From a bacterium (GTDB lineage: Bacteria > Hinthialibacterota > Hinthialibacteria > Hinthialibacterales > Hinthialibacteraceae): a DNA stretch of 64,000 nt. Shown here piece by piece: positions 6,157 to 51,923 of this stretch (positions within the stretch are counted from its first letter, which is position 1; each line of letters begins with the position of its first letter). The DNA lies in contig CAXXSM010000149.1 of NCBI GenBank assembly GCA_963663405.2, forward strand, positions 1-64,000. Reading direction: 5' to 3'. The translations under genes and the position numbers were made by a program. The notes beneath the pieces were generated by a model, which searched no databases, was not told where the DNA came from, and worked only from the letters and a program-made list of their open reading frames with translations.

Positions 6157-6182
6157 ACGGGATCCTGGAAAAGAGAATTCTA

Positions 6183-7214: not shown

Positions 7215-7243
7215 ATCCTCATGCGCTTGGAGCGCCGTCTATT

Positions 7244-8185
7244 ATGCCGAGTGAAGAACATCGCATCGATCCAACGCAACTCGCCCAGATCACGGACTTG
7301 GAATTACTGGCCCGGATCGTGGTGGATGGATTTATGACAGGCTTGCATCGAAGCCCGCGTTTTGGTACCTCGATTGAATTTGCCCAGTACCGCGCCTATA
7401 CGCAGGGGGATGATCCGCGTTTCATTGATTGGAGCCTCTATGCGCGCACCGACCGGCTGCACACCAAACTCTTCCAAGATGATACCAATCTGCGCTGCAC
7501 GATTATGATTGATTGCAGCGCATCGATGAATTACGCGTCGGGCGCTGTTTCGAAGTTTCAGTATGCGCGGATGTTGGCGGCTTGTCTGGCGCTGCTGCTC
7601 TTTCGGCAAAAAGATGGGATTGGTTTGATCGGTTTTCAAGAATCGGCGGAACTTTATCTGCCTCCCCGGAACAGCGCGCGGCATCTGCGGCGGCTTCAGG
7701 TGGAACTCAATTCACTGCAAGCGAAAGGGAAAACGGATATCTCGCGGGCGCTTGAATACGCGGGAGATGTGTCGCCCCCGCGGGGGATGTTAATACTAAT
7801 TTCTGATCTACTCCATCCAGTTGAATCGACAATCGCGCCTTTGCGGTTAATGCGGGCGCGGAATCATGACGCGATTGTATTTCAAATCAGCGATCCCTCC
7901 GAACAGACGTTTCCCTTTAAGAAATCAGTCACACTGCTTGACGCGGAAAGTGACCGGGAACAATTCGTTGTCCCGGATTCGATCCGGGAAGAATATCTAG
8001 AAAACCGGGAACGTCATTTTTCGCAGATCCGTAATGAATGCCTGGCGGTTGAAATCGATGTAGATGAATTTGTAACCGATGAGCCATTAGACCGCGCGCT
8101 TCACGCATTCTTGCAGCGCCGGACCCAGACGCTTTCGAGCGGACAGGCGAGACGGAATCAATCCGTCATGGGGGGCTTTGGATGA
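7244..8185 (+). CDS. DUF58 domain protein (vWA-like)
   Basis: GLHRS...G.SIEFAQYRAY.QGDD.RFIDW, MIDCSASM (MIDAS-like), LISDL. Confidence 0.92.
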   Translation: MPSEEHRIDPTQLAQITDLELLARIVVDGFMTGLHRSPRFGTSIEFAQYRAYTQGDDPRFIDWSLYARTDRLHTKLFQDDTNLRCTIMIDCSASMNYASGAVSKFQYARMLAACLALLLFRQKDGIGLIGFQESAELYLPPRNSARHLRRLQVELNSLQAKGKTDISRALEYAGDVSPPRGMLILISDLLHPVESTIAPLRLMRARNHDAIVFQISDPSEQTFPFKKSVTLLDAESDREQFVVPDSIREEYLENRERHFSQIRNECLAVEIDVDEFVTDEPLDRALHAFLQRRTQTLSSGQARRNQSVMGGFG

Positions 8186-10329
8186 GTTTCACTTTCCTCG
8201 CTCCCATCTTGCTGGCTGGTTTAGCGCTGCCCATTGTTCCCTGGCTGATTCATCAGATCCGGCGGCCGGAACGCGAGACAGTGGTGTTCAGCAGTCTCAT
8301 GTTTGTGCCTTCGATCAAACAGAAAATTATTGAGCGGCGGACGATACAGCATCTTTTATTGATGCTTCTGCGCATGCTGTTGTTGATCCTGCTGGCGTTC
8401 GCATTCTCACGGCCCAGCCGTATATTAACCGCGCCTGCGCCGGAATCCGTAGAGACGGGACGGTCAGTAATTTTGATCGACACATCGTACAGCATGGGTG
8501 TTGGAGACCAGTTCCAGGAAGCGAAAGAGGAAGCCCTTTCGATCGCGCGATCTCTTGGCCCGTTGGAACGGGCGGGCGTGATCGCGTTTAATGACCGGCC
8601 AGATGTCTTGGCTCCGTTGACCGTTGAAGGTGAATCGATCGCGGCGAATCACAGCCGGATTCAGCAGGCGATTGAGAAAACCGAGTTGAGTGGGAATGGA
8701 ACTTCTTACCTTTCCGCTTTGCAAGCGGCGCAGGATCTTCTATTGGCCGGTTTCAAAGCAGAAAATCCATCCGAAGAGAAATGCGTGGTCTATTTGATAT
8801 CAGACTTTCAAAAAACTGGGATGCCCGAAACAGATGGGCGCTGGAAACTTTCTCCCCGCATTTCACTGCAGCCTATATCGATTGGAACGGCGGTTCAAAA
8901 GCAGTTCTCGATTGTTGATGTGATCGCGCAGGCGAATCAAACGGGTTCCCTACGCATAGCCGGGCGGATCAGAAATCAATCAACCGTCGCCGCGTCTCCT
9001 TGTACGGTCAAACTTTTTATCGATGGCGCTGAGGCGGCGCGGCAATCGATTCTGGTTCAACCAGGAAACACATCCAAGATTTCGTTCGATCTCCCCATTC
9101 AGACAAACGATTTTCATGAAGGGTATCTGGAACTCGAAGAGGACGCGTTGAATCTGGATAATCGGAGATACTTCGCGTGGAACCCATCCCGGAAGAAACG
9201 AATTGTACTCATCGCCGATCCCCGGCCCGAAACACGATGGCCCGGCGCATGGTTTCTAATGCGGGCGCTTCAAGTGGACGCGGACATTCATTGGGATTTT
9301 AAAGTCATCCAACAGGACGAACTTACGGGAATTATAGATGAATCTCCAGATATCCTTCTTGCTGGAGATCTGGATGGTTTGACAAAACAAACAGCGGAGA
9401 CGCTGTTGCGATTCGCGCAAGAGGGCAAGTCTGTGTTTCTCTGTTTGAACGCTTCTATGAAACAGGAGGCGATCAACGAAAATTTGCTTTCCGCTCTTGG
9501 TCTTAAGCACGCCGGATTTCGCGATCCAACTACGCATGAGACGCCGTTCGAACTGTTGTCTTGGATCGATTTCGATCATCCAATCTTTTTTCCCTTTCAA
9601 GGATCGCAGTACAACGATTTTTCGTCCATTCATTTTACAAATTATGTCCGTATCGAATCCATTCCAAGTGACGAGGACGCCGGAGCGTATCCTGTTGTAA
9701 AGACACTCGCGCGATTTGAATCCGATGTCCCCGCGATTCTTGAAATCCCATATGGGGAAGGAATGGTCCTTCTTTTGACCTTTCCATTGGAACTGGAATG
9801 GACGAATTTAATGAGAAGCCCAAAATTCCTTCCACTGTTGTTTGAATCGTTGCAACATCTCGCGGGAAGAGAGGAAGAACGCCGCGCATGGCAGGTTGGT
9901 GAGCGCGTAACCGCCGCGCCTGAACAAGTTTCTGGTGAGTTGAATTGGAGTGTTCAGCCGCCGGGGGAGGATTCATTGATGCGGTTCGAAAGCGCGAATT
10001 CGCCGATCCTTCTTGAGAAGGCGGGATTCCTCCGATGGCGCAGTAATGGCGCGCCGGAAGAGAACATTATCGAAGCGGTGAACGTTGACGCGCATGAGTC
10101 CGATCTCACCCGCGCGCCGTTGGAAGAATTTGAAGGAAAACTCTGCGCCGCCTCTTTTCTCGATCGGGAGACGATATCCCAAACGGCGGAGGGGGAAGAG
10201 TTGGAGAGTGATTTGATCATCACCGATGAATTCGGACGTTTCTTTTTAATTCTGTTTTTTATCGGATTACTCATGGAATGCTGGTACGCGTTCCGGCTTT
10301 CGAAAAAAGCGTCCAGCGAGACAGCGTAA
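8182..10329 (+). CDS. BatA N-terminal double-TM plus vWA domain membrane protein
   Basis: FLAP..L.GLA.P..PWLIH, FSSLMF, LLLMLLRMLLLILLAFAFSRP, vWA IDTSYSM, LISDFQ, CARDB-like DN.RYF, C-terminal TM ending ..LMECW. Confidence 0.9.
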   Translation: MSFTFLAPILLAGLALPIVPWLIHQIRRPERETVVFSSLMFVPSIKQKIIERRTIQHLLLMLLRMLLLILLAFAFSRPSRILTAPAPESVETGRSVILIDTSYSMGVGDQFQEAKEEALSIARSLGPLERAGVIAFNDRPDVLAPLTVEGESIAANHSRIQQAIEKTELSGNGTSYLSALQAAQDLLLAGFKAENPSEEKCVVYLISDFQKTGMPETDGRWKLSPRISLQPISIGTAVQKQFSIVDVIAQANQTGSLRIAGRIRNQSTVAASPCTVKLFIDGAEAARQSILVQPGNTSKISFDLPIQTNDFHEGYLELEEDALNLDNRRYFAWNPSRKKRIVLIADPRPETRWPGAWFLMRALQVDADIHWDFKVIQQDELTGIIDESPDILLAGDLDGLTKQTAETLLRFAQEGKSVFLCLNASMKQEAINENLLSALGLKHAGFRDPTTHETPFELLSWIDFDHPIFFPFQGSQYNDFSSIHFTNYVRIESIPSDEDAGAYPVVKTLARFESDVPAILEIPYGEGMVLLLTFPLELEWTNLMRSPKFLPLLFESLQHLAGREEERRAWQVGERVTAAPEQVSGELNWSVQPPGEDSLMRFESANSPILLEKAGFLRWRSNGAPEENIIEAVNVDAHESDLTRAPLEEFEGKLCAASFLDRETISQTAEGEELESDLIITDEFGRFFLILFFIGLLMECWYAFRLSKKASSETA

Positions 10330-10350
10330 TGTGTGAAAGGAGTGGATCCG

Positions 10351-13300
10351 ATGTCATCCAATCCTCAGATACCGAAAGAATTACAATTTAAGATTCAACA
10401 GGTGGCCGATCAATATTACTGTGTGAATCTGTTCCGAAGTTGGGCGCGATTTGGAGCGGTCACACTTGGATTGGTGGCTGTTTTTGTTTTATTGTTGATG
10501 GGCGCCGTGTGGCTGGGGATTTCGCGTGAATGGTTCTATCTTCTATTTGCCGCAGCGGAAATCTTCATTGTTTGGCGTTATTTAGTTTTTCCATTGCGAA
10601 AACCGCTCACCCTTCAACAGATCGCGCTCTATATGGAAGAGCATTATCCAGAATTGGAGAACCGTCTCGTCAGCGCGGAGTGTTTCGGCGCCGGCCGGGA
10701 GAAGGTTTCTTCGCGTTGGATGCTGGAACAATTCTTTAAGGAAACCGATGGAGCGACACGCCGGATTTCATTTTTTGAATTATTGGATTCGGATATTCTC
10801 GTCAAGCAATTCATAAAAGCGGCCGCCGTTTTGTGTGTGACTGCGCTTGTGGCTGTAGGATTCTTCAAATTCTGGGCGCCTGATTTCTCCAGCATTTCCA
10901 TTCCATCCATCGCGGGTGAAACGCTGCCGAATTTTACGGTCGAGCCGGGCACTATCAAAATCCGGAAAGGGGAATCCCAAATTGTCCTATGCAAAGGAAA
11001 ACGGAACGAGAAGGTCTCGATTCGCTGGCGGATGGAAGACCGCCCTTGGCAAGCGCAGACAATGGAACCGAGTGACTCGGACCAAGTGTACTATCATACA
11101 TTCCCCAATCTTCAATCTGACGTTGAATATCAAGTGGAATATGGAAAAATACAGTCACCCGTATACACCATCCATACATGGATTCCACCGGAAGTGGAAT
11201 CGATCGATCTGACTTATCATTATCCGGATTACTTAGGACTCGAACCGAAAACATTTCCCCACAGCGGCAATATCAACGCGATTGAACAGACGCGGGTGCG
11301 TTTTGGAGTGTGGGTGAATAAAGAATTGCGGGAGGCGGCGCTGGTCTTCGGAAATGGAGAGCGGCTCGCGCTTACGACAGAAGAGGATTACAAATGGATT
11401 GGAGATTTCTTGGTCCAAGAGAACGGAAACTATACAATTGAACTGATCGACTTGGATGGGGAGACCAATGAATACAAACCGGAGTATGAGATTCTCGTCC
11501 AGTACGACCGCGCGCCGGAAATAAAAATCGATTTTCCCCGGCGGGATCTTCAGGTCACCATGCTGGAAGAGGCGCCTTTTGAATTTCATGTCCGGGATGA
11601 TTTTGGAATCAAAGCGTTTGGGATTCAATACGAGATCGCGGGAAAGGAAGACGCGGTCCGCATTCCTCTTCAGACCCAGGATGAAATCGTTATGGAAGCG
11701 GTGGGGGAACATCAGTTAAACTTGGAAGACTTAGATCTCGAAGTTGGGGATTTAATAACTTGGACAATTTGGGTGCAGGATTTTAAACCGGATCGGAGTG
11801 ATTTTGAAGAATTGGGGGATCCGTATTTCCTCGAAATTTGTCCATTTCGCCGCCTATTCGAAAGGGCGATGTCCAACGCGGGGGCTGGAGAACAACAAGG
11901 AGGGTCGCAGGGCGGAGCCGGTGGTAACCAGGATGCGCTTAGTCAAAAAGAGATCATCATCGCGACTTGGAACTTGCGGCGGCAGTCAAAGGATTTGAAG
12001 GAAGAAGAATACATCGAAAAGCGAACCAAAATCGTCGAAGCGCAAACTCAATTACTGACGCGATATTTAAATTCCAATTCTCAGCAATTTCAGAATCGAG
12101 CATTGCAGAATCAATTAACCCAGGCGATGAAGCAAGCGATCGAAGCGCTCGAAAAAGCTGAGTATTCCGATCCTGGAGCCAGCTTGTCGGAAGCGGCGGT
12201 CCATGAACAGACAGCGTACCGGTTGATTTTGAAACTGCAGCCGGATCGGTCCCAAATTGCGCAGAGACAACAAAGCGGCCAAATGGGACAAGGTGAAGGA
12301 CAACAAAGGAACCGTCCTGAAATCGATGAATTGGAATTGAACCGCCGCCGTAATTTTTATGAAGAAGAACGGCAGACACAGAGGCGGTTGGAAGAGACGG
12401 ACGAGTCGCTGGACCAGATCAAAGAACTCGCCCGGCGTCAAAAAAATATCAGCGATGAAATTTCGAAATTGATCTCTGAACGTAAGACGACAGAAACCGG
12501 GGAAGAACAGAAACGGCGTTTAGAAAAACTGCAAGAAGAAGAGAGGCGTAATCTTGAGCGGTTGGATGAGACCGCCGGAGAGATGATCTCCCAAAACACC
12601 AGCAATCCACAAACCCGCGAAGCGATGCGGCGTCTCAATGACACCCGCAGGCAGATGAACCGCAGCTTGGAGAATTTGGAGGGAGAACAACTCCAAGAAG
12701 CGCGGGCGGCCAGCTCGAAAGCCCTATCTGAACTCGAAACGATCGAAAGGCAATTGCGTCAATATTCACAGGATGCGGCGTCAAAGCGTATGATGGAACT
12801 ACAGGACGCGATGCGATCAGCGATTGCGAAGGAAGAGAAACTCCTCGATCGGTTGAAAGAACTACAAGATAACCAGAACGCGCCGACTCTGTCTCTCGAT
12901 CCAGATTTAGAGGAGAAAAAAGAATCACTTCGAAACGATAAAGAAGAATTGGCTGATGAGTTCATGGAATTGATCGCGCAAGCGGGTGCACTTTCCGAGC
13001 GATCGAAACAGAGCCAGCCTTTAATGTCACGCAACCTGGGCGACTGGCTGCGCCGGACAAGCCAAAAAGGCATCGTTGAAGATATTCAACAAGAACAGAA
13101 ACTGCCCCTGATCCAATATGGCGTATGGGAAAAAGCCCTCGAGCAGGAAAACCGTATTTTAGAAAAAATGAATGAGGTTTCCACCGAATTGGATCGCGTG
13201 GCGGAGTCGATTACCTCCGGCGGCCGGGAGGCCATGGAAATGGCGCTGAACCGGTTAAGAGAATTGACCCAGCCAAATGAAAATAGCGCCGAAGGTCAAA

Positions 13301-13986
13301 TCGCGCAGGCGAACACGCCCAGTGACGATCGATCTTCGAATGAAAACGCGCAAGAAGCCGAATCGAATTCTCAAACCCAAAGAGAAGGGAATGCACAACA
13401 ATCCGAGCGGAATTCTCAATCGCAGGGTCGGGGAGGCGATCCGGAAAGAGACAGGCAAGGGGATCAGGAAGCGAACGCCTCCAATGGACAGAATCCACGA
13501 GGGGAACGGAATTCTCCGAATGAAAATGAACAGTCCAGCGATTCAGGAGAAAGGCGCATGGGCGGCGGTGGTGGCCCGGGAAATCAGAATCGATCCTGGC
13601 CTATGCCGGGAGATCCACGGACAGGTGAATTTATGCGGCGGTTCATGGAATCTGAATACCGGGAATGGGATAGCGCGCTGCGGAGCGCGGAAAATCTCTT
13701 GCCGGATTCGGCTTCGTTAAAAGATCAGTTGACGGAGATTCGGGAACAGATCGAAGACCTTCGTGGCGAATATCGCCGCAACCGGCAGCCTCCTCAATAC
13801 GATCTCTTTTTAAACTATATCGCCAACCCATTGTTGAAAACGGTGGAGGAATTGGAAGCGGAGATTGAAAAGCAATCGGCGCCCGGCGAATTTGCCCTAA
13901 TGGATGAAGGAAGCGCGCCTGTGAATTATCAAAAGCAGGTCGCTGAATATTTTAAGGCGCTTTCGGAATCGGAAACAGAACGGTAA
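10351..13986 (+). CDS. Large membrane protein with Ig-like domains and long coiled-coil/Q-rich tail (DUF4175-like)
   Basis: Three N-terminal TM segments, PELENRLVSA, YHYPDYLGL, DDFGI, long Q/E/R-rich helical region, terminal P..YQKQVAEYFKAL. ATG at 10351 follows an AAGGAG RBS; the track start is 10333. Confidence 0.8.
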   Translation: MSSNPQIPKELQFKIQQVADQYYCVNLFRSWARFGAVTLGLVAVFVLLLMGAVWLGISREWFYLLFAAAEIFIVWRYLVFPLRKPLTLQQIALYMEEHYPELENRLVSAECFGAGREKVSSRWMLEQFFKETDGATRRISFFELLDSDILVKQFIKAAAVLCVTALVAVGFFKFWAPDFSSISIPSIAGETLPNFTVEPGTIKIRKGESQIVLCKGKRNEKVSIRWRMEDRPWQAQTMEPSDSDQVYYHTFPNLQSDVEYQVEYGKIQSPVYTIHTWIPPEVESIDLTYHYPDYLGLEPKTFPHSGNINAIEQTRVRFGVWVNKELREAALVFGNGERLALTTEEDYKWIGDFLVQENGNYTIELIDLDGETNEYKPEYEILVQYDRAPEIKIDFPRRDLQVTMLEEAPFEFHVRDDFGIKAFGIQYEIAGKEDAVRIPLQTQDEIVMEAVGEHQLNLEDLDLEVGDLITWTIWVQDFKPDRSDFEELGDPYFLEICPFRRLFERAMSNAGAGEQQGGSQGGAGGNQDALSQKEIIIATWNLRRQSKDLKEEEYIEKRTKIVEAQTQLLTRYLNSNSQQFQNRALQNQLTQAMKQAIEALEKAEYSDPGASLSEAAVHEQTAYRLILKLQPDRSQIAQRQQSGQMGQGEGQQRNRPEIDELELNRRRNFYEEERQTQRRLEETDESLDQIKELARRQKNISDEISKLISERKTTETGEEQKRRLEKLQEEERRNLERLDETAGEMISQNTSNPQTREAMRRLNDTRRQMNRSLENLEGEQLQEARAASSKALSELETIERQLRQYSQDAASKRMMELQDAMRSAIAKEEKLLDRLKELQDNQNAPTLSLDPDLEEKKESLRNDKEELADEFMELIAQAGALSERSKQSQPLMSRNLGDWLRRTSQKGIVEDIQQEQKLPLIQYGVWEKALEQENRILEKMNEVSTELDRVAESITSGGREAMEMALNRLRELTQPNENSAEGQIAQANTPSDDRSSNENAQEAESNSQTQREGNAQQSERNSQSQGRGGDPERDRQGDQEANASNGQNPRGERNSPNENEQSSDSGERRMGGGGGPGNQNRSWPMPGDPRTGEFMRRFMESEYREWDSALRSAENLLPDSASLKDQLTEIREQIEDLRGEYRRNRQPPQYDLFLNYIANPLLKTVEELEAEIEKQSAPGEFALMDEGSAPVNYQKQVAEYFKALSESETER

Positions 13987-13988
13987 CG

Positions 13989-16427
13989 ATGATTGAATAT
14001 TGGAAAGACTGGATCGCCGGAGAGAACGCCGGGAATCTGATCGCGCTGGATTTTCAATTCAACACACCGCTGGGAACCGCCGCCTGCTTGTTGGCGTTGC
14101 TTCTATTGGGGGCGGTGGTGGTTGTTTATTATTGGCCCCAGCTGGATCGTGTTAAGTTTCTACCCCGCCTTTTTCTCGTAGGTCTTCGTATGGCGTTTTT
14201 TACGCTGGCTTTATTTCTTCTGCTCGATCCCTGTTTAGTCGGTCAGCGGATTCAACCGGGGGATCAATACGTAGTTCTTCTCTTTGATGATTCAAAAAGC
14301 ATGCGGGTAAAAGGGGAAGATGGGCGTTCGAGAGGAGAGCGCCTGCAGGAGGCCTATTCACTGGCCGATTCGGAATTCGAAGAAACACTGCGGGCCGGTC
14401 ATCAGGTTTTAAAATACCGTTTTGGCGATGGGACTGAGCCGTTGAATCATGTCCAGGATCTGGATTTTTCTCAATCCAAAACGGATATTCCTCTCGCGAT
14501 CGGGGAAGCGATGCGTGAGTTGGATGGTTTCACACTTTCCGCGGTTGTTCTCTTCTCGGATGGCGTTCAACAAACGTCCCGCGCTCTAAATAATTTGAAA
14601 GAAGAACTGAAAACCGAGGTTCCCGTCTTCACGGTGGGAACGGGCGCCGAATCATCGTGGCGCGATCTGCGGATCAGTCAATTCTCGGTCAAGCGGCCTC
14701 CTTTCGACCGAAGCCCCGTGTCGCTCCACTGTGAGATCGAATCCGTTGGATTGGCGGGCGAAACAGCCCTGGTTGAAGCGCTTGATGGACATAAGGTTGT
14801 AGCGGCTAAGACGCTGGTGATTGATAGTGACCGGCAGATCAACTCAACGCGGCTGGAATTTATTCCAGAGAAAAAAGGCTGGTTGAATTATGAACTCCGC
14901 ACGCGGTTGAGCCAGGAGAATCTACCGGATTCATCATCCGGGGATGATGAGAACGTACAGACCGGTTTGGAGCGGTTGGTCCAGAATAACACACGCCGTT
15001 TTTTAGGGGACAACCGGGAAAAAACGTTTCGGATTCTCTACTACAGCGGGAAACCGAATTGGGAACATACGTTTATTCGACGGGCGCTTAGAGAGGATGA
15101 AGAACTGAAATTGAGCAGTTTGATCTTGATCTCACGCGCCGAACGGAAATTTGTCTACCGGGGCGCTCGGACCACGATGACTAATCCGCTGTTTGAAGGA
15201 TTTGAAGACGATCAAGAAAAATACGGACGGTACGACGAACCGGTATTTCTACGATTGGGATTGAAAGAGAAAGAATTGGAGGATGGATACCCCAAGCAAG
15301 CGGAGGATTTATTTCCCTACCATCTAGTGATCTGGGGGGAAGTCGAACCGGATGATTTCAACGCGCAGCAATTAAAACTAACTCGTGATTTTATCGACCG
15401 CCGTGGTGGTTCGCTGCTTCTTATGGGAGGGCGGGGCGCATTTACGAAAGAGCCGTATATCAATAGCCCCATCGAATCGGCGCTGCCTGTTATGCCATAC
15501 GAATCGAGTGACCGGAACGATGATGAAGCGCGGGAATTATTCCAAACGGTTCCCACCCTTGATGGGGAGACATCCGGAGCATGGACGCTGGACGCCGATC
15601 CAGAAGAAAACCAACGGTTGTGGGAGGAGATGCCGAGTTTATTTGGATTGAACCGCTTTATCCTGACTCGCGCGGGCGCGGCGGCGCATGCGCGGGCGGT
15701 CAGTTTGAATCCAGATTTAAACGGACAACCTGTTTATGCGGTGCAGCGATATGGGCGTGGGCGATGCGCCGTCTTGGCGACAGGAGAGACCTGGCCGTGG
15801 CGGATGAAATTGGATATCGAAAACGATAATCACATCCGTTTCTGGCGGCAATTGATCCGCAGTTTAGTCAAAGACGTTCCGGAACCTCTGCAGCTTCGTT
15901 CCAAACAGGATTCGTATACCGTGGGGGAACCCGCGCGGTTTGAAATTGCGATCCGTGACGCGCTTTTTGAAGAACGGGAAGGGCTTCAAGCGGCTGTATC
16001 TATCACAACTTCCTCGCAACAAAAGATCTCTTTGAGTGTGGATGAATCGATTACTGAACCGGGAGTCTATACTTGTGAATGGATTCCGGAGGAGGAAGGA
16101 ATTCATACGCTTTCAGTCATAGCCAAGGATGAAAACGATGAAAACGCCGGTACGCTCGAAGAAGCGTTTTTGACTGAATTGGACCGGAAGGAATATCAAA
16201 AGGCGGAATACAATCCCGCGTTTTTAAGAGAACTCGCGAATGTCAGCGGGGGAAAATTCTATACACTGGAGCAACTGGGAGAAATCGCCAAGGATATTCC
16301 CTACACACCGAATCCGGAAGCGGAAACTATCCGGCTTCATTTGTGGCATCATCCTGGTTTCTATATCTTATTGATTGTTTTGATGACTCTGGAATGGTTT
16401 CTACGGCGGAAACGAGGGCACGCTTGA
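13989..16427 (+). CDS. Membrane protein with vWA and class I glutamine amidotransferase-like (DUF1355-type) domains
   Basis: LFDDSKSM, VLFSDG, GGSLLLMGG, YGRGR..VLA...TWPWRM, FWRQLIR, C-terminal TM ..EWFLRRK.G. Confidence 0.8.
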   Translation: MIEYWKDWIAGENAGNLIALDFQFNTPLGTAACLLALLLLGAVVVVYYWPQLDRVKFLPRLFLVGLRMAFFTLALFLLLDPCLVGQRIQPGDQYVVLLFDDSKSMRVKGEDGRSRGERLQEAYSLADSEFEETLRAGHQVLKYRFGDGTEPLNHVQDLDFSQSKTDIPLAIGEAMRELDGFTLSAVVLFSDGVQQTSRALNNLKEELKTEVPVFTVGTGAESSWRDLRISQFSVKRPPFDRSPVSLHCEIESVGLAGETALVEALDGHKVVAAKTLVIDSDRQINSTRLEFIPEKKGWLNYELRTRLSQENLPDSSSGDDENVQTGLERLVQNNTRRFLGDNREKTFRILYYSGKPNWEHTFIRRALREDEELKLSSLILISRAERKFVYRGARTTMTNPLFEGFEDDQEKYGRYDEPVFLRLGLKEKELEDGYPKQAEDLFPYHLVIWGEVEPDDFNAQQLKLTRDFIDRRGGSLLLMGGRGAFTKEPYINSPIESALPVMPYESSDRNDDEARELFQTVPTLDGETSGAWTLDADPEENQRLWEEMPSLFGLNRFILTRAGAAAHARAVSLNPDLNGQPVYAVQRYGRGRCAVLATGETWPWRMKLDIENDNHIRFWRQLIRSLVKDVPEPLQLRSKQDSYTVGEPARFEIAIRDALFEEREGLQAAVSITTSSQQKISLSVDESITEPGVYTCEWIPEEEGIHTLSVIAKDENDENAGTLEEAFLTELDRKEYQKAEYNPAFLRELANVSGGKFYTLEQLGEIAKDIPYTPNPEAETIRLHLWHHPGFYILLIVLMTLEWFLRRKRGHA

Positions 16428-23256: not shown

Positions 23257-23274
23257 TCGCTGAAAGCGATTTTT
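23255..23274. terminator. Short hairpin between convergent genes, possible bidirectional terminator
   Basis: aatcgct-gaa-agcgatt followed by ttt. Confidence 0.45.
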
Positions 23275-25802
23275 CAATCATGAAGGAAATAGTCCGAAAC
23301 GGCTGTTGGGCTGGTTTCTCCCAGCGCGTAGGCGAAAATCCGGTTCATTAAGTCTATTCCCTCTGGTGTCAGTGACGTGAATGCGTTCGTATCCATCAAC
23401 CAGGCGCCGATTCGCAATCCTGGTGACGTGATGTTGTTGACTGTGGCTCCTTTTTCTTGCACCCACAGAAGCGCGCGATTAGGATTGCCGGGTTCCGTGG
23501 CGAGTACGGTGACGCCACTGGGTGGATTGTCTAAGTAACCGGTCGATAGAGAACGGCTTGTTATTGGGAGAACGCCTAAAGGCAATCCTTGTGTGATGGG
23601 GTGTGTGTTGTTTATGATTTCGATCTCGCTGCCCCGGCTCGATCCGGAACCGATATCCGGTTGGAAGGTGAAATCATCATGCAGTAGCCCTTCCCCGTTG
23701 ACAATGGGGCTTTCGCTGGTTTGGTAGTTCATGTCGATCAAGTATTGTGGGTATACCGTCGCGCTGACATAGGTCAAATCGGCGCCGGTGAGATCGGCGG
23801 GCATTTCGTATCCGGGCTCATTCGTGCAATCATATTCATGAACGTTCAAACCAAAATAGGTTCGCAGATGCGTGACAATCGCGTCGTCGTCTTCAAGATT
23901 CTGGGCGGACAATCGCCTAAATAGATAGGATTGTTTTCCCGTAAGTGGTTTGGCGACAATCAATGCTGTATCGCCTGCCATATCAACTGGCGGATCTGAA
24001 CCAATGACGAGATTTCCGGAAAATAATTTTGGCCCAAGCACATCTGTCTCGGATTGCACTTCGTATTGAAGAGTTACAGATGATTCACTGACACCTGATA
24101 GATCCCATGTGATACTGCCATCCGTGTTTACATTGGCCGTTGTGCCTGCAGGGGGATTAAGGTTACTCGCCGTGAAGCCTTCAGGTGGTGTTTCCTGCAC
24201 GGTGGATTGAGTGGGAATGCCCATAGCGGTGTTGAACAGAACCGTAATCTCAATTGGAGATTGGACGGCGCCGACATCAACGATGGAATTTTGAATCCTG
24301 CGATTCATTTCCGCTCTCATCAGAATATCGATGCTATTCAACGTGACATCGGGATTGTTGGTGACTGCGAGCCAATCGATACTTGCGCCGGATTCACGAT
24401 TGGCGAGGTAGATGTAATGTTCACCCGCGGTGAGTTCAAATGGGCGTGGGTTGAGTGCAGGATCTTCGCAGCTGACCCAGTCTCGTTCGAACCGTTTGTT
24501 GCTATTAATATTCCAACGTGAAGACTCATCGCCTGCCGGTGGATCGTCTACTCCGAAATGAAAGGAGTCGCTGTTTCCTTGTTCTCCACGAATGTAGGCA
24601 AAGAAATAATACGTTCCGTCTTCTGGAATCTCGATGGTGAAATCCATAATCGAGGAGGAAGAACCGTTCATCGAAACGGCGGTCACTCCATTGTCGGATC
24701 GTGGATCAATCATCAATCCGAAATCGGCTTCATCGTAGCGGAATCCTTGTTCGGCTTGGATGACCGTGGGGAAATTTGGATCGACAACGAAAGGATCCAC
24801 TGGAGGATCAAACTCCGGTGTTTGAGGAAGGAGAAAATCGCCGCCAATGTAATTAACGCGTCTTTCACCATCATCGAATGTTCCCTTCCAGACCGCTGTA
24901 TCGGTTTCACCTAAAGTGAGATCGTAGGTTAACACCGCTTCGCCGGATAGGTCATTTAACGTCCAATCGAATGAACCATCGGAATTTTGCGCGATCTCTC
25001 CCGCGGTGACTTGAATGTTCGAGGCGGTGGAATTCCGGGGGATGATTTCGTTGACAACCGTGCTGAAGGTTTGTCCATCACGCACTTGGGCGGTGATCGT
25101 GATTGGGGTGAGAGTGGCGCCCGGTTCCATATCTTCCGTGGGGATGTTTCGGTATACATGCAATGGAAGTTCTTCGATCGTGACATCTTCAAATTCGAAT
25201 AGTCCGAGAGCGCTGTCATTTTCCGCGCTGGCCGCTAAGCCAACCATGACGGGATCTTGCAAGGGAAGGACTTCAGTTTGCAGAAGCGATTTTCTACCTC
25301 GTACGAAAGTATAGAGATGAACGCTGTTCCCGACTCGTTCCAGGCGAAACGCATCGCTGTAAGCAGTTGCATCGTCATCGTCCGCTTTCGTCCCTCCACC
25401 TTTGAGGGTTCGAAATACTGGAAAAACCGTTGAATCTCCTCCTGAAGCGAGACCACCTGTTAATAGAATTGAAACATGAGCGGAATCCGGATCTGAATCT
25501 TGACGGAGCATTAATCCTCCCCGGCCAATATCTTCAAGAGGAATCGGCAGGGCTTGGATGGCGAAACTGCCGGACATTTCTTTATACACATAGTGGAAAT
25601 GATCGGTGAAACTATCATCGCTGATAGTCGCGCCGACCGCGTCCACTTCGTAAATCCCTGTATTTTCGTCATAGTCCGCAATCCCCGGAATCGAGGGATC
25701 ACCAATGTCGATGTGATCGTCAAAAATCCCTAGCGGTTCCTGCGCGTGAACACCGGATGCAAACAAAAAAAGGACAGTGAAACAGAAAAATCTTGTTCTC
25801 AT
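23274..25802 (-). CDS. Secreted multidomain beta-sandwich protein (CBM-like) with C-terminal TAVSDYFLHD motif
   Basis: Signal peptide, acidic beta-rich domains (GLMLRQ..D.DSAH; QAEQG..; NSDSFH.GVD), C-terminal GATase-like segment; AAGGAG RBS. Confidence 0.75.
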   Translation of the reverse strand: MRTRFFCFTVLFLFASGVHAQEPLGIFDDHIDIGDPSIPGIADYDENTGIYEVDAVGATISDDSFTDHFHYVYKEMSGSFAIQALPIPLEDIGRGGLMLRQDSDPDSAHVSILLTGGLASGGDSTVFPVFRTLKGGGTKADDDDATAYSDAFRLERVGNSVHLYTFVRGRKSLLQTEVLPLQDPVMVGLAASAENDSALGLFEFEDVTIEELPLHVYRNIPTEDMEPGATLTPITITAQVRDGQTFSTVVNEIIPRNSTASNIQVTAGEIAQNSDGSFDWTLNDLSGEAVLTYDLTLGETDTAVWKGTFDDGERRVNYIGGDFLLPQTPEFDPPVDPFVVDPNFPTVIQAEQGFRYDEADFGLMIDPRSDNGVTAVSMNGSSSSIMDFTIEIPEDGTYYFFAYIRGEQGNSDSFHFGVDDPPAGDESSRWNINSNKRFERDWVSCEDPALNPRPFELTAGEHYIYLANRESGASIDWLAVTNNPDVTLNSIDILMRAEMNRRIQNSIVDVGAVQSPIEITVLFNTAMGIPTQSTVQETPPEGFTASNLNPPAGTTANVNTDGSITWDLSGVSESSVTLQYEVQSETDVLGPKLFSGNLVIGSDPPVDMAGDTALIVAKPLTGKQSYLFRRLSAQNLEDDDAIVTHLRTYFGLNVHEYDCTNEPGYEMPADLTGADLTYVSATVYPQYLIDMNYQTSESPIVNGEGLLHDDFTFQPDIGSGSSRGSEIEIINNTHPITQGLPLGVLPITSRSLSTGYLDNPPSGVTVLATEPGNPNRALLWVQEKGATVNNITSPGLRIGAWLMDTNAFTSLTPEGIDLMNRIFAYALGETSPTAVSDYFLHD

Positions 25803-38511: not shown

Positions 38512-38675
38512 TTCAACATTTTCTGAATCACATTTCTTATATCATTCATAACTAATGGTAGGGTTTTTACTACCATAAAATGGATACTTTTCCTACTAGA
38601 CATGTAGTGAATATATCCATACAGTTTCTACACTGCTCTACGAGCAGAGAATCTATTTCTATGAAAGAGAGAAGA

Positions 38676-40202
38676 ATGATGAAAAGAGTTTTGCTAGTTG
38701 TTCTTGTGGGGGTGTTATTTATCACTTCTGTCTATGCAGATCGGAGCCAGTACGATCCAACGAAAACACAGTTCGCCCTGCCTTTGTTGATTGACAATCC
38801 GGCGTTAGGGCCGATTGTTGTGGATGGCATCATCCATACAAGCAGGAATCAAGATGACAGTGAAGCCTGGGAGTCCGCGTACCGCTGGACTGTGTCGCCT
38901 GATTCCTCGTTGGATGACGGTGTCGCTTATGGGCATATGTCGCTAGGGGATCCACCGGAAAGCAGTGATGATCTGAGTTTTACGATCTACATCGGATATG
39001 ACAGCAAAAACCTCTATGTGGGTGTGTCAGTCAGCGATTTCGATAATTATGATGACGACGCGGCGGAAGGATCGTACAACGAAGGAAACACCTGGGACGA
39101 CGACAGTGTGGAGATTTTTGTTGATGGCGATAACAGTAATTATCCCGAACGGGATACAACGGGAAGCAATCCTGACGTTGTCGATACCGGTGGACAGTAT
39201 GTAATCACATTTAATAATGCAAGCCGTGACGCGGAAGCGGGCAGTCCCGGATTCGGGCCGGACGCGGCCTGGTACGCGAGGACGGAATTTACAGATGTTG
39301 GTTACGATGCGGAATTCCGGATTTCGTTAAGCGAGATCGGGAATCCCCAGCCGGGTGATATCATTGGCTTTACCGTCGCAGTCAACGATGATGACGACGG
39401 CGGCGCCAGTGAGCGGCAGATGATTTGGGCGGGTGAAACCCACGTCGAAGCAAGTTATGGGAATCTCGTGTTTGGTGGACGTACGATTGTCGCGCCGAAA
39501 GTCTCGACAGCGCCGACGATTGATGGCGTGATAGATCTAAGTGAATATCCCGGCGCGGTTGAACAGATTGTCAATCAGTATACCGGCAATACTTCTACTG
39601 AAGACGACGCATGGGAAGCCGGTGATTTAGAAATGTCGGCATGGGTCGTACACGATGAGGATTATATCTACGTGGCGGTCGATGTGCTGGACGACGCGAT
39701 TGTAAACGATACGGTTTCCACGCCTGGATCAATGGGGGGAAACACCTGGGATGATGATGGAATCGAAATCTATTTTGATTCGGATGAAACAAACCGGCAT
39801 AACTATTTTGGCCCCGCTCATCTGCCCCGGCATGAAGGCAATTACAACACCACCGCGAATAATTCGATCGGCGCCCCTCCGACAGGCCCTGTTTATGGGG
39901 ATGATCCAGACGCTGATTATTATTCCTTAACGACATTGACGGATGACGGTTATCAGTTGGAATTCCGGATCAAGAAACTGGCGTTGACGATTCCCGGCGA
40001 AGATGTGTTGATGGATACGTTTGGATTCAATTTCAGCGCGAACGATGATGACATCGTAGATCCTGACGGGACCACCGGTGACCGGGACGCGCCTGGCGGA
40101 CAATATCACTGGAACGGTACCGCGAATTCCGAACGGAGCTACGGCTTTTTAACATTGTCACCTGAGGAATTCACCGCCGTTCAGGAATGGGCTCTTTATT
40201 AA
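38676..40202 (+). CDS. Secreted tandem CBM9/DOMON-like sugar-binding protein with C-terminal TAVQEWALY motif
   Basis: Signal MMKRVLLVVLVGVLFITSVYA; two repeats of DG....W..A / YD..NLYV.V.V.D / TWDDD.VEIF.D / GY..EFRI / GF....NDDD. Confidence 0.8.
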   Translation: MMKRVLLVVLVGVLFITSVYADRSQYDPTKTQFALPLLIDNPALGPIVVDGIIHTSRNQDDSEAWESAYRWTVSPDSSLDDGVAYGHMSLGDPPESSDDLSFTIYIGYDSKNLYVGVSVSDFDNYDDDAAEGSYNEGNTWDDDSVEIFVDGDNSNYPERDTTGSNPDVVDTGGQYVITFNNASRDAEAGSPGFGPDAAWYARTEFTDVGYDAEFRISLSEIGNPQPGDIIGFTVAVNDDDDGGASERQMIWAGETHVEASYGNLVFGGRTIVAPKVSTAPTIDGVIDLSEYPGAVEQIVNQYTGNTSTEDDAWEAGDLEMSAWVVHDEDYIYVAVDVLDDAIVNDTVSTPGSMGGNTWDDDGIEIYFDSDETNRHNYFGPAHLPRHEGNYNTTANNSIGAPPTGPVYGDDPDADYYSLTTLTDDGYQLEFRIKKLALTIPGEDVLMDTFGFNFSANDDDIVDPDGTTGDRDAPGGQYHWNGTANSERSYGFLTLSPEEFTAVQEWALY

Positions 40203-40324
40203 TGACCGCATGATTGGATAGCCAAACACGGATCACTCTTGTATTAACATCTCGCGTTTTATGTGTGTAATAAACAAGGGATCCGAGGAGACCGTGATGG
40301 ATCTCCATCATGAGAAAACAAAAT

Positions 40325-40364
40325 GAGGTTCGGGCGATGTCCCTCAGAGGCGCGCCCGAACCTC
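40325..40364 (+). promoter_or_regulatory. Strong intergenic hairpin without a U-tract
   Basis: Perfect 12-bp stem gaggttcgggcg/cgcccgaacctc between the CBM9 gene and the pilin-like gene. Confidence 0.55.
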
Positions 40365-40483
40365 CCTCCCCTAACAACCATCAGACTGTTAAACGTGTAC
40401 AACGTAAGGTGAATGAGGACAGTAAGAAAACGCGTATGTTTCAATGGGCGATTCGAAACAACGAAAGGCATGGACGGAACAGA

Positions 40484-41143
40484 ATGGTTTATATGCGATC
40501 AGCGAAAAAGGGATTTACGTTAATTGAATTATTGATAGTGGTGGCGATTATTGGTATATTAGCCGCGATCGCGGTGCCGAATTTTCTAAATGCGCAGATT
40601 CGCGCGAAGATGGCGCGCTGTTTCGCCGATATGCGTTCGGTTGGAAATGGTATCGAACAGCTGCGGCTAGATAAGGGTGTACTGTTAATCGACTGGTGGG
40701 ATGACGATGCGCAATGGGGGCAGGAACGGTTGACGAATATCTTTAATCTTGTCGGCGCCGGGCCGGATTTTGAAGCCCGTGGAAAAGACGCTGTCATGGC
40801 TCCGTTGACCAGTCCGGTGGCGTATTTGTCTTCCATCCCAACCGATCCATTCCAGACCGGGCCGGAATTCAATTATCCTTATTACTATTATTTAGACAAC
40901 GATCCGGAAGGATCGGGTGAAGATCACGATTTCCCGGTTTACCGTATACAATCCGCCAAGCAGTATGGCACTTCACCTCTTCGCGAAGGGGAATGGGCCT
41001 TGGGTGGAATCGGGCCGGATAAAGCGTGGTACGAGACGGTGGGTGGAGATAATGTAAGTGATTTGCGGGGCGTTCATTACGATCCCTCCAATGGGCTGGT
41101 CAGCCGGGGTGATATCATGCTGACATCGCGAGGGATCAATTGA
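40484..41143 (+). CDS. Type IV pilin / GspG-like protein with prepilin N-methylation signal
   Basis: KKG|FTLIELLIVVAIIGILAAIAVPNFLNAQIRAK; PLTSPVAYLSSIPTDPF; GPD; YDPSNGLVSRGDI. Start 40484 or 40493, not 40310. Confidence 0.9.
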   Translation: MVYMRSAKKGFTLIELLIVVAIIGILAAIAVPNFLNAQIRAKMARCFADMRSVGNGIEQLRLDKGVLLIDWWDDDAQWGQERLTNIFNLVGAGPDFEARGKDAVMAPLTSPVAYLSSIPTDPFQTGPEFNYPYYYYLDNDPEGSGEDHDFPVYRIQSAKQYGTSPLREGEWALGGIGPDKAWYETVGGDNVSDLRGVHYDPSNGLVSRGDIMLTSRGIN

Positions 41144-41256: not shown

Positions 41257-44200
41257 ATGGGTGCGAATTTGTATACCAATGAATGGCATTCAATCCACAT
41301 GATATTCTACTATTCTATAATTTCTAATCGGAAAAGACTCTTCATCTTCTATTTGATATTTGTTGGTGTTTTATCTTGTCACGCAAATTCTTCTTGGCGG
41401 TATTGGAAAGTCACGGATGGATTGAGCGAATCATACTGTCATAGCGTTTCAATCGGTTACAATGGCAGTGTCTGGGTAAATCATGGGATCACAGGTACCA
41501 TGAGCCATATCACAGGATATCCCCTACGGAAAAAAGACGCCGTTTTTAACTTATCCAGTCCAGGGCCCTATGTGAAAGTGCTCCAAGACCATATTGGAAA
41601 TCTATTTTCTGTCTTCATGGGGAATCCTGGGGGATTTCAGCGATATCAACGTGAAACATGGGTGAAATATCCTGTGCAGGATATCCAACTAGTAAATTGG
41701 CTAGTCGCGGCGGATTTTCCATTTATTTCCACGGGCGCAAATACCATCCTTTATCTTTTACCCAAAAAAGTAATGGAATTCGACGCCGTTTCTTTAGAAA
41801 GTCGTATGGTCCTATCGTCAGAACAGACCGGTCTTGGTTCTTTTATCCATCTTACGGAAACATCCCATTACCCAGTCTGGATCACCGCTGAACGAGGCGT
41901 TGTGCGGTTGGAATCAGGAGAATTAAACCAGCTTCCCTATCAATGGAAGACGTATCCCCTCCCCGAATCGATCCAGGTCAAGCGATTACGGGAACCTTAT
42001 ATCGATCATCACGGCGCTTTGTATATCGTAGGAGACAGCGAAAGCAGCGGCGATCGCGTCTTGTTGGAATTTATGGATGGATGTTGGAAAGAGATCTATC
42101 AGAGCGATCGTCTAGAGCGGGGATGGCGGGATGTGGATGGCGTTTTGTGGATCCAAAAAGGCTATGAACGTTTGATGCGAATTCATGACGGGCGGGAACA
42201 TCTAATTGAGAACAAAAACGCTTTGTCCGGACAAATCTATGATATAAAAACACAACCGGATGGTGTCGCATGGATCGCCACTTCGCATGGACTCGCTCGA
42301 TATTCCCCCAGCGTTTGGCGGACTCCTTCCAGCTTGATTGATGTGAAAGACCTTGCGCTCACCATTTATGAAGATCCTGCAGGACGTCTTTGGTGCGCTT
42401 ATCGAAATATATTAGCGTTGAAGGAAAATGGACAGTGGGAAGTCTATCCGTTTGATTCAAGAATGGGTCCGACTTTTCATTTTCAAACCGATACATTGGG
42501 TATGCTAAGAGATGGCCGGCTCGCGATCGGTGTGTTTTGTCCGGATCGTTGTTACTTTTTACCCGAGCGCCGTCAATTCCAACTTGTCCATGAGGATGAG
42601 CGCAATTCGTATCAATATTTGGCTCCCCATCAGGATGGATTGATTTGGTTGGTTGTGCATGATACGAAGCGGGATATACATAGTCTAATGAGTTTTGATG
42701 GGAAACAATACGAGGAAATTATTCCCGACCTGAATTGTTTACAAGCCAATGATGTTAAAGATATCTATCGAGATCAGAAGAACCGGATTTGGATTGGGAC
42801 GACCGCCGAGTTGGCGCTCTATTCTGATGGGCGCTTCCAGCCGCTGGATGCGATGGAAACGTTTCACAACCAGGGGATATTCTGCATCCATGAGATCGAA
42901 CCGGGGACGCTTTGGTTTGGAGGGCGGAATACAATTGTTCAATATAAGGGAAACGAATGGTCAATCGTGCGGAGTGATATGGACGCTGTCCGATCGATGA
43001 TTACCGCTCAGGATGGCAGCATATGGATCGCGTCGCAAAGTGGTCTGCATCGTTTTTATCAAGGGATTTGGACTGTATATACGGATGAAGACGGATTGCC
43101 TGACATTGCCGTATACAACGTTTTTGAAGATCGTGATGGCGTGATCTGGGCGGGAACGAGCCGGGGAATCAGCCGTTATCATCCGGAATCGGACAGGGAT
43201 TGTCCGGATACAAATATTTTTATAGAAGAAAACTTATCAACAACGCCACCGGATGGCCAAGTGCGAATTGTGTTTTCTGGGGTGGATAAATGGAATCAAA
43301 CCCAGCGGGATCACATTCTCTATTCCTACCGGCTTGACCGGCGGCCTTGGTCCACGTATCGCCCAGCGACCTACGCTTCGTTTTCAAACCTAGCTCCTGG
43401 ATCGCATATGTTTGAAGTGCGGGCCATGGATCGGAACCGGAATGTAGATCCCGTACCCGCCTTGTTTGAATTTACGGTTCTACAACCTTGGTATCAGAAA
43501 CTTTCAGTCCAAATTACGTTCTGTGTCTGTATTGGCGCGATTATTATTCTTGCGCGGCTTCTTATCCATCGCCATCTTTGGCTTGAAAAGTTGGTGCAGG
43601 AACGAACCGTTGATTTGATCGCGGCGAATCAACAGTTGCACAAAGACGCAGAGGAATTGAAACAAGCGGAAACCCAACTCCGTTCCATGGCATCAGAATT
43701 AATTCTTTCAGAGGAACGCGAACGGCGCCGGATCGCTTCTGGACTGCACGACCGGATCGGTCATGCGCTGGCGTTCATCAAGATTAAGATTGGACAGTTT
43801 TTATCGACTTTGACTGATGAAGCGGACAAAGAAAACTTACATTCCATTCAGGGTGTGATTGATCATGCGATCAAAGAGACTCATGTATTGACGTTTGAGT
43901 TAAGCCCACCTATTCTGTACGAGTTGGGATTGGAAAAAGCCATTCATTGGCTGGTGAAAGAGTTTCACAAAATGTCGGGTGTGGCGCCTGTATTTGACGA
44001 TGATGGTCTCCGGGCGCCGTTGGAAGAAAATGTGCGTATTTTTCTATTTCAAGCCGTGCGTGAATTGTTGATGAATACTGCGAAACATGCGAAGGCGAAG
44101 CGGGTTGCGGTATCGATTGTTCATTTACCTGAGACGATCGTTATCACGATTGAAGACGACGGTATAGGATTTAGTCCTAGTTCGAATCAAACGCAGGCTC

Positions 44201-51862: not shown

Positions 51863-51923
51863 TTCACATTGCCTCTTTATTGAAATCTCAGAATTAGTTA
51901 GTTCGATCCAACTTCGTCTTTTC

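Follow-up and report, generated by a model that had tools for sequence, protein, structure and literature searches.

The stretch analyzed here (positions 1 to 64,000 of contig CAXXSM010000149.1, C149:1-64000 in our numbering, hereafter the window) comes from an uncultured, polysaccharide-degrading bacterium and encodes three exported proteins that end in the same peptide of about nine residues, referred to below as the tag (Table 1). An initial annotation of this DNA had described the three as Sec-exported, acidic beta-sandwich proteins whose unrelated bodies share a C-terminus, and this description was largely borne out: the shared tails are present in all three translated open reading frames, the N-termini are all signal-peptide-like, the isoelectric points (pI) are low, and after removal of the tails the proteins show no mutual BLASTP match at E<1e-5. 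A beta-sandwich body was confirmed for protein 2, which carries two CBM9 domains (Pfam CBM9_1, 1.9e-31), and for protein 3, whose body comprises two choice-of-anchor-J / MAM-like beta-sandwich domains (AlphaFold2 model); the latter scores 26 bits against choice_anch_J (NF038128), under the 30-bit cut-off, and is not counted as a member of that family. The only Pfam match of protein 1 is a weak one to Golvesin_C, and tagged paralogs of this protein are present elsewhere in the genome. Its tail is a variant that has Y instead of W and one additional residue (matrix score 21.1). The true start of protein 2 is probably the Met before MMKRVLLVV, and a search of the genome contigs with this protein returned 41 pattern matches and no relatives.

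Table 1. Features of the window that are discussed in the text.
Feature	Coordinates	Strand	Remarks
Bat/MoxR-type operon	2627-16427	+	
Tagged exported protein 1	23274-25802	-	842 aa, pI 4.15, ends ..TAVSDYFLHD*
Tail of protein 1, TAVSDYFLHD	23277-23306 (stop 23274-23276)	-	translated open reading frame
Tagged exported protein 2	38580-40202	+	540 aa as listed, pI 4.05, ends ..TAVQEWALY*
Tail of protein 2, TAVQEWALY	40173-40199	+	matrix score 25.3
Orphan prepilin-type GspG-like pseudopilin	40310-41143	+	directly downstream of protein 2, gap 108 nt
Reg_prop/Y_Y_Y sensor kinase	41257-44343	+	context, next to the protein 2-pilin pair
LuxR-type response regulator	44336-44998	+	context, not part of the tag
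IS-type transposase pair	51104-52223	-	
Signal-peptide protein with Peptidase_C39_2-like domain	57564-59237	-	
Tagged exported protein 3	61666-63129	+	487 aa, pI 4.05, ends ..TPVTDWVLY*
Tail of protein 3, TPVTDWVLY	63100-63126	+	translated open reading frame
Orphan GspG-like pseudopilin	63145-63966	+	16 nt downstream of protein 3

The source assembly (G000; 8.44 Mb in 170 contigs, 82% complete) yielded 8,112 crude gene calls and 17,438 stop-to-stop frames of at least 100 aa. The pattern of the initial annotation, T-[AP]-V-x-[DE]-[WY]-x-L-[YH], matches 16 times within the last 14 residues of these frames and once internally in 3,902,144 residues. The core V.[DEQN][WYF].[LIVMF][YHFW] forms the exact end of 77 frames and is followed by one further residue in nine frames and by two in another two, compared with 147 internal occurrences at least 10 residues from the end, equivalent to 0.66 expected at any fixed position; the C-terminal enrichment predicted at the outset is thus seen genome-wide. 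The consensus of 88 seed tails reads [TVS]-[ASP]-V-x-[DNE]-W-x-[LIV]-[YHF]-COOH, in which V and W are nearly invariant (Trp occupies position -4 in 80 of the 88), so that the tail first described is real and its original definition was too narrow. The last motif residue is also the last residue of the protein in 77 seed tails, with one or two additional residues in the other 11, in agreement with the earlier remark that the tag lacks a transmembrane segment or basic tail. A nine-column matrix retrieves 152 of the 8,112 gene calls at a threshold of 10 bits or more (about 2% of genes; 0.67 expected) and 166 at 8 bits or more (1.7 expected). Because weaker variants, such as ..SWDIYK, occur among paralogs of tagged proteins, the real number of tagged proteins lies above 152. 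A chance origin of the shared ending is excluded.

A search for the motif inside proteins, in fusion with a further domain, gave 13 matches that are chance-like, with one possible exception. This is a 776-aa frame of the source genome (C106:68386-70716), in which ..VPVNDWFLH follows a Pro-rich linker at residue 661 and precedes 115 Asp-rich residues; it may represent a fusion, frameshift or readthrough form of a tagged gene.

The tag is carried by a wide range of bodies. With tails removed, the 152 tagged proteins form 69 single-linkage BLAST clusters, 51 of which are singletons, and the largest clusters have 41 and 22 members. Signal-peptide-like N-termini occur in 111 of the 148 complete tagged genes compared with 1,736 of 6,141 others, as judged by a crude heuristic, many of whose negatives have a truncated start or a signal peptide that lacks a basic residue; the enrichment among signal-peptide proteins that the initial annotation had anticipated is therefore present. 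Tagged proteins are a distinct class among exported proteins, with a median pI of 4.15 and with 99.3% of them below pI 5.5, vs 39.8% of the other signal-peptide proteins, an acidity that could reflect extracellular location or a requirement of the export route. A Pfam scan covered 40 representatives of the 69 clusters, with the window proteins and proteins longer than 1,300 aa set aside, and assigned CBM9 to five and Laminin_G_3 to six of them, while 20 had no Pfam match and single cases carried leucine-rich repeat (LRR), WD40, FG-GAP, FGE-sulfatase, beta-helix/pectinesterase, esterase, cohesin, CotH and sulfatase domains. The cargo is mostly made up of lectin-like, carbohydrate-binding and enzyme modules. 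Since most other exported enzymes of the window (sulfatases, GH106, BNR and DUF2961 proteins) are untagged, the tag marks a subset of the exported proteome.

The position of the tail relative to the body was modeled for protein 3. In its AlphaFold2 model (predicted local distance difference test, pLDDT, 90.2; 33-row alignment), the last body strand spans residues 465-477 (..WVIDNVSI..), and residues 483-487 have a pLDDT below 50 and are unpacked from the body, which makes the tail, in this model, a free peptide appended after the body's last strand. Other tagged proteins are laid out alike: the strand that closes the domain leads into a linker, which is either 3-6 residues long or rich in Pro/Thr, and the tail follows. 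Within the CBM9 family of protein 2, which occupies 23 other loci at about 50% body identity, the tail pattern is found in 20 of the 22 other closed frames, and the remaining two end in ..VWELY. Likewise, V481 and W484 are conserved at 90% or more among 33 aligned protein 3 homologs, in which the linker is variable. Judged from these alignments, purifying selection appears to act on the tail.

Outside the tag-bearing lineage, the corresponding place in protein 3 homologs is taken by other modules. In Verrucomicrobia-labelled homologs (P0147, P0152-P0170), a C-terminal extension of 60-100 aa replaces the tag and ends in ..YYRLYRP, ..FYRVRQ or ..FLRVRQ; this extension had no Pfam or NCBIfam match among the ten proteins scanned and may itself be an uncatalogued C-terminal domain. 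In the distant homolog P0174, the C-terminus consists of a hydrophobic stretch followed by RRIRK, an end that looks PEP-CTERM-like to us and had no model match. The choice-of-anchor J cut-off is passed by P0172 (39.8 bits) and P0174 (30.5 bits). The occurrence of different C-terminal modules in the same place across lineages is the pattern expected of a sorting slot.

The distribution of the tag was followed in 35 genomes of the phylum, all of a single class, with six outgroup genomes and one KSB1 genome for comparison; genomes were searched with the DNA pattern for V-x-[DN]-W-x-[LIVMF]-[YHFL]-stop, the reversed pattern served as control, and all phyletic comparisons are counts uncorrected for relatedness between genomes. 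The tag is present in 33 of the 35 genomes. The source genome has 62 hits (reversed control 2), all 19 relatives in its family (f1) have 10-55 (control 0-3), and the other families of the order and class have 5-36 (control 0-4). Two genomes, G026 (3 hits, control 1) and G028 (1 hit, control 1), are tagless, and the Laminin_G_3 proteins of both end without the tag. The six outgroup genomes (0-2 hits, control 0-3) and the KSB1 genome (2 hits, control 6) do not rise above the control, in line with the lineage specificity that the initial annotation had proposed. Because homologs of protein 3 with the tag carry the NCBI names 'Candidatus Hinthialibacter antarcticus' and 'Candidatus Omnitrophota bacterium' (the latter an unverified label), the tag-bearing phylum is probably Hinthialibacterota, formerly OLB16.

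Two of the three tagged genes of the window lie directly 5' of prepilin-type genes, and this arrangement recurs in the genome, in which 143 pilin-like genes were found by regular expression. A pilin is the direct neighbour of 21 of the 152 tagged genes compared with 68 of 1,754 other signal-peptide genes (odds ratio 4.0, p=2.6e-6) and, as the next downstream gene on the same strand, follows 10 of 152 compared with 16 of 1,754 (odds ratio 7.6, p=1.4e-5). In the rest of the gene set, 233 of 7,791 genes adjoin a pilin. Export by itself is not associated with a pilin neighbour (3.9% vs 3.0%), and the link is therefore specific to the tag. When all neighbour families were tested without bias, the pilin family came first, with 22 of its 73 members within two genes of a tag (odds ratio 6.0, p=1.8e-9); the other enriched families are small paralogous operon copies, and no other broadly distributed family emerged. 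The association was also seen in other genomes of the phylum: in G010, a GFTLIEL-coding motif lies 43-158 nt downstream on the same strand at 5 of 55 tag sites, compared with 0.09 expected (Poisson p=4.7e-8), and in G021 a pilin motif follows 3 of 9 tag sites on contigs with a complete pilin list. None of 8 tag sites of G029 has a downstream pilin motif, and one more tag-pilin pair was found there by homology. For protein 3, the downstream pilin is kept in 6 of 8 orthologous loci of other genomes. The link between tag and pilins is thus real but partial. Tag-bearing genomes contain 34-107 pilin motif hits each, and the tagless genomes have the lowest numbers, 15 and 29. Expansion of orphan pseudopilin genes has also been reported for other polysaccharide degraders.

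The neighbouring pilins are GspG-like without reaching formal membership of the GspG family. In the pilin downstream of protein 2, GFTLIELL lies at residue 66 of the listed frame (N_methyl, 2.3e-9), and the match to the GspG N-terminus scores 46 bits, under the cut-off. The pilin downstream of protein 3 has its probable true start at Met63 of the listed frame, giving a 211-aa product (P0001; 63331-63966), for which AlphaFold2 predicts a type IV pilin fold (pLDDT 94.4). The nearest solved folds to this model are those of EpsG (4lw9_A; Z 7.8, root-mean-square deviation 2.4 A over 99 residues) and PulG (Z 6.8), Z values in the commonly seen range that therefore indicate likeness rather than proof, and Foldseek against the PDB gave weak pilin matches (best E 0.013). 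Across the neighbouring orphan pilins, TIGR01710 scores 46-50 bits, short of its cut-off of 88.85, with an alignment limited to the N-terminal 58 positions, and Pfam assigns N_methyl only, so that full-length GspG (TIGR01710 / PF08334) is not recognized. BLAST with canonical GspG weakly reached 91 other pilins, 35 of them through the globular head. Public data hold more than 6,900 relatives. A complex prediction for the head of the pilin beside protein 3 (residues 31-211, 97 rows) and the C-terminal domain plus tail of protein 3 (residues 247-487, 33 rows), run without controls, scored 0.00 and 0.01 compared with a mark of 0.32 and weighs neither for nor against binding.

A further association concerns type II secretion systems (T2SSs). 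The source genome has nine secretin-domain matches and three T2SS operons with GspK homologs (on contigs C29, C118 and C133). The C29-type GspK is present in all 35 genomes and is therefore uninformative, and the C118-type occurs in the tagless G028 and was not found in the tag-bearing G029, G033, G027 and G034. The C133-type GspK, in contrast, has a distinct locus in 30 of the 33 tag-bearing genomes and in neither G028 nor G026. The N-terminal part of the secretin of this operon, a protein of about 950 aa, finds matches at E<=1.6e-68 in every one of the 26 genomes of families f1-f3, G009 and G023 among them, where the C133-type GspK match is absent, and gives repeated weaker matches inside giant secretin frames in 6 of 7 genomes of family f5; its match in G028 lies solely in the C118-type locus, and G026 and G034 have none. 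When the GspK and secretin evidence is combined, the C133-type operon is found in 32 of 33 tag-bearing genomes vs 0 of 2 tagless genomes. Secretin counts as such do not separate the two groups (7 each in G028 and G026, 3-10 in the others). The order of the C133-type operon is GspE-F-H-I-J-K-L-M-x-D, with the GspH-I-J-K set at C133:30627-33800 in the source genome, and no T2SSG-family gene is present in the operons of G000, G010, G021, G007 and G020 (5 of 5 resolved); canonical GspG genes are confined to the C118 and C29 operons. That this T2SS lacks a GspG of its own, in genomes with 34-107 orphan GspG-like motifs, invites the idea that the orphans feed it. GspK was also considered as an acceptor without its last strand and was rejected, since the three homologs appear, on sequence inspection, to keep the C-terminal strand; phmmer of GspK against solved structures matched only the HhH part.

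The giant secretin frames of family f5 are a separate observation. They measure 1,373-3,966 aa (G029:C6, G030:C11, G032:C9, G031:C148 and C176, G033:C377, G027:C48) and contain many repeated Secretin_N-like segments, which would mean an unusually long periplasmic vestibule.

Other genes of the window provide context. The sensor kinase and response regulator beside the protein 2-pilin pair recall the hybrid two-component sensors of polysaccharide utilisation loci, and genome-wide 6 of the 21 members of the response-regulator family lie near tagged genes, a mild enrichment (p=2.4e-3). The Bat/MoxR-type operon encodes TPR/Peptidase_MA, DUF4159, MoxR AAA_3 ATPase, DUF58/VWA and BatA-VWA proteins together with a 1,217-aa protein without Pfam match and a Filamin/GATase1-like protein. 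The Peptidase_C39_2-like domain (2e-9) of the signal-peptide protein at 57564-59237 marks a C39-type cysteine peptidase that is predicted to be extracytoplasmic, and the transposase pair (HTH_21 / rve integrase core) lies between glycan-degradation genes and an LRR protein.

Collectively, unrelated exported proteins bear at their extreme C-terminus a tag that is kept across the phylum, forms a free peptide in the model, shows a statistical link to pseudopilin genes and co-occurs with a GspG-less T2SS. Because the form of the tail resembles the PilC/PilY1 and TcpF peptides compared below and because pilin genes adjoin tagged genes, we commit ourselves, tentatively and at somewhat less than an even chance, to an export or docking tag that would be read by subunits of a T2SS-type (type IV) filament. 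As proposed here, the tag would be a phylum-specific address on Sec-exported, folded and strongly acidic proteins. In the periplasm, the free tail would dock, probably by beta-strand addition, onto pilin-type subunits of a T2SS endopilus, for which the much enlarged set of orphan GspG-like pseudopilins would be the building material; the cargo would leave by the large secretin of the operon that lacks its own GspG and would then be released or kept on the fibre. Pilin binding, strand addition and the outcome in export or display are the steps that we infer. The initial annotation had read the tail as a secretion or anchoring signal or as a donor strand docking onto a partner, a reading that fits the enrichment and the pilin and T2SS links and whose partner-binding part stays a proposal. 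A stronger form of the proposal, which we regard as rather doubtful, is that the tail may be a general, linear, transplantable T2SS signal: through strand addition to one of about 100 alternative GspG-like pseudopilins, each cargo would load itself onto the endopilus of the GspG-less T2SS with its oversized secretin and would perhaps license that endopilus.

Several observations weigh against a filament-read tag. The CBM9 family of protein 2 has a pilin neighbour in just 2 of 24 loci, 86% of tagged genes are without one (14% with), and a tagged gene precedes only 10 of the 91 pilins that have an upstream gene on the same strand. Pilin motifs and tags do not scale with each other (107 vs 17 in G021, 70 vs 5 in G033). 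The neighbouring pilins keep Glu5 and, as modeled, a complete GspG-like fold, with no missing strand evident. The phyletic match rests on two tagless genomes, which are 84% and 90% complete (one in 1,260 contigs) and may represent a single evolutionary event, and the tag-bearing G034 (68% complete) is without markers of the C133-type operon. Finally, the large secretin of the source genome itself is split into at least four frames (C133:24006-27707; 476, 172, 114 and 212 aa). Relatives carry the orthologous gene as a single frame of 926-1,013 aa, with one internal TAA in G009; the split may be an assembly error or decay.

The low share of tagged genes beside pilins would be expected if the tag is read by some other machine of the envelope (for instance a processing enzyme, a shuttle barrel or a translocon of the outer membrane) and the pilin link arises from co-regulation in substrate-responsive loci. 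The two-component regulators in these loci and the enrichment of response regulators make shared regulation plausible, and the sorting-type modules found in the same place in other lineages point to a generic slot that is not tied to pilins. On the other side, pilins are the sole broadly distributed family enriched beside tagged genes, export by itself does not go with a pilin neighbour, so that the link is tag-specific, and parts of the type IX secretion system (T9SS) were not found within the limits given below; we consider a machine of this kind unlikely, if still a serious contender. A further step down in probability is a tail that acts after export as a retention ligand on a surface component (outer-membrane protein, glycan or fibre) and is not an export signal. 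A role of this sort would suit a cargo dominated by surface binding modules (CBM9 in 5 and Laminin_G_3 in 6 of 40 representatives, LRR, cohesin, FG-GAP) and a tail that is free in the model on a short linker, and PilC/PilY1 tails hold their adhesin on the fibre under load (PMC13533445, in excerpt). A nine-residue peptide is, however, a weak anchor unless buried by strand addition, and no receptor candidate emerged; were the receptor a pilin fibre, this explanation would overlap with the filament-read tag that we favour.

The free C-terminus is likewise what a periplasmic PDZ-type protease or chaperone would recognize, with the tail serving in processing, quality control or activation. PDZ ligands, as in DegS, DegP and Prc, are extreme C-termini with an aromatic or hydrophobic final pair; the motif needs the extreme C-terminus and ends in such a pair, and the source genome has 11 PDZ-containing frames. 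These proteases are universal, however, whereas the tag occurs in a single phylum; its nine conserved positions, with an invariant Trp and an acidic/amide residue among them, exceed the needs of such a ligand; none of the 11 frames is on a contig with a secretin match; and both the pilin link and the acidity of the cargo would be left unexplained, which makes a PDZ site very improbable. That the shared ending is due to chance, to paralog ancestry or to an artefact of assembly or annotation has a negligible probability: although some tagged proteins are paralogous, as the two largest clusters illustrate, this reading is refuted by the exact-end counts (77 vs 0.66), by the 69 unrelated clusters and by the reversed-pattern control (10-62 hits in f1 genomes vs 0-3).

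How T2SSs pick folded substrates is a long-standing question, and the recognition of these substrates is still called poorly defined in the excerpts available of two sources (PMC10120004, PMC7949064). If the tag is a T2SS or pilin signal, cargo recognition would become simply testable, and the filament-read tag would explain both the expansion of orphan pseudopilins in this lineage and the placement of lectins and enzymes outside the cell without a T9SS or cellulosomes. If, further, the signal is transplantable, a single nine-residue code would govern the export or display of about 2% of the proteome. Such a code would be the first T2SS cargo signal to be defined by its sequence and would extend the PilY1 tail mechanism to many cargoes. 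Should the reader be a different one, the tag would still be an uncatalogued sorting signal on about 2% of genes. In practice, the secreted or surface proteins of Hinthialibacterota genomes can be predicted from the motif, which merits a family model.

No catalogued signal accounts for the tag. Pfam and NCBIfam gave no sorting domain on the three window proteins, and their tails (30 residues) found nothing relevant in NCBIfam at E up to 10, so the question raised by the initial annotation, whether an existing NCBIfam model fits, is answered in the negative. No account of the tag was found in Pfam, NCBIfam or the literature searched, supplements excluded (T2SS C-terminal signals, sorting signals with pseudopilins, and the phylum), and the strings 'secret', 'C-terminal', 'type II secretion' and 'pseudopil' do not occur in the founding paper of the phylum (PMC9324843). 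The models NF053834 (ultrashort_CTERM) and NF050076 (sort_motif_YLP) resemble the tag in describing very short putative sorting motifs over 10-11 positions, but membership is not reached: each has three matches in the source genome, at three shared places (C19:5103, C109:29036/29039 and C109:62347/62350) and at chance level (E 0.29-3.6), and none is a tagged tail.

Among larger signals, the type A C-terminal domain (CTD) of the T9SS (TIGR04183 / PF18962) is likewise a C-terminal appendage of many unrelated Sec-exported proteins that directs them to or across the outer membrane, but it is a folded domain of 70-100 residues whereas the tag has nine, a difference already pointed out in the initial annotation. 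In the source genome, TIGR04183 has no matches (its control was silent too), PF18962 has none there nor in 30 of the 35 phylum genomes, and SprA (TIGR04189) has none in an assembly that is 82% complete, in a search that was silent in control genomes as well. A T9SS signal is rejected, given that no CTD model matches in the source genome and that the tail consists of nine residues after the last body strand. Scattered PF18962 matches occur in five genomes and exceed the cut-off solely on small contigs of G008, G003 and G026 (520, 990 and 1,260 contigs); these are the three most fragmented assemblies, and the matches above the cut-off are probably bin contamination and not a lineage trait.

The tripartite signals, i.e., LPXTG/sortase, PEP-CTERM/exosortase and GlyGly-CTERM/rhombosortase, also place a short C-terminal motif on unrelated exported proteins; in these, however, a transmembrane helix and a basic cluster follow the motif, whereas tagged proteins end 0-2 residues after it. 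Recognition of a few free C-terminal residues of a folded protein is known from the peroxisomal targeting signal PTS1, which is eukaryotic and has a TPR receptor. The beta-signal of outer-membrane proteins has a terminal aromatic residue and alternating hydrophobic residues and ends a beta-barrel, whereas tagged bodies are soluble beta-sandwich and other domains.

Two peptides that are read by pilins come closer. TcpF has an export signal, a disordered peptide at one terminus, to which the minor pilin TcpB of the toxin-coregulated pilus binds and which is able to take a foreign protein out of the cell (PMC10120004, in excerpt). As is proposed for the tag, the TcpF/CofJ signal, short and disordered and located at the end of a protein that folds in the periplasm, is bound by a pilin and suffices to carry cargo through a secretin. 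It differs in being N-terminal, in serving one exoprotein per system and in being cut off on secretion (PMC10120004), whereas the tag is C-terminal and is carried by the products of about 2% of genes.

The closest known mode of action, by analogy, is that of the PilC/PilY1 tail, whose last ~10 residues complete a beta-sheet of the minor pilin PilK/PilX and are necessary and partly sufficient for pilus function (PMC13533445, in excerpt); these tails share a conserved Trp (PMC13711793, in excerpt). Like the tag, the published peptide spans about 10 residues and forms the very end of a large Sec-exported protein, with a conserved Trp and with neither a transmembrane segment nor a cleavage motif; it is read by a pilin-type protein, as proposed for the tag, and this protein is often encoded beside it. 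The two differ as follows: PilC/PilY1 is a single beta-propeller adhesin family, compared with about 150 unrelated bodies here; its motif is W-R-E-hydrophobic, compared with V-x-D-W-x-L-Y; and its acceptor is the Glu5-less tip pilin PilK/PilX, whereas the pilins beside tagged genes keep Glu5 and are GspG-like. These pilins read G-F-T-L-I-E and model as a complete GspG-like fold, and the GspK homologs keep their C-terminal strands on inspection, so that an exact PilK-type acceptor is not seen. The PilY1 domain PF05567 has no match in the source genome (the control was silent too), and tagged bodies carry CBM9, LamG, LRR and other domains. With Glu5 kept, a pilin fold that appears complete and GspK homologs that appear to keep their last strand, the tag is not regarded as a member of the PilY1 system. 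In kind, C-terminal address or docking peptides are already known; what is new here is the quantified and replicated link to pseudopilins, a cargo of extreme acidity, the fact that tag and GspG-less T2SS with a large secretin occur together, and the PilY1 and TcpF analogues to which the tag can be compared.

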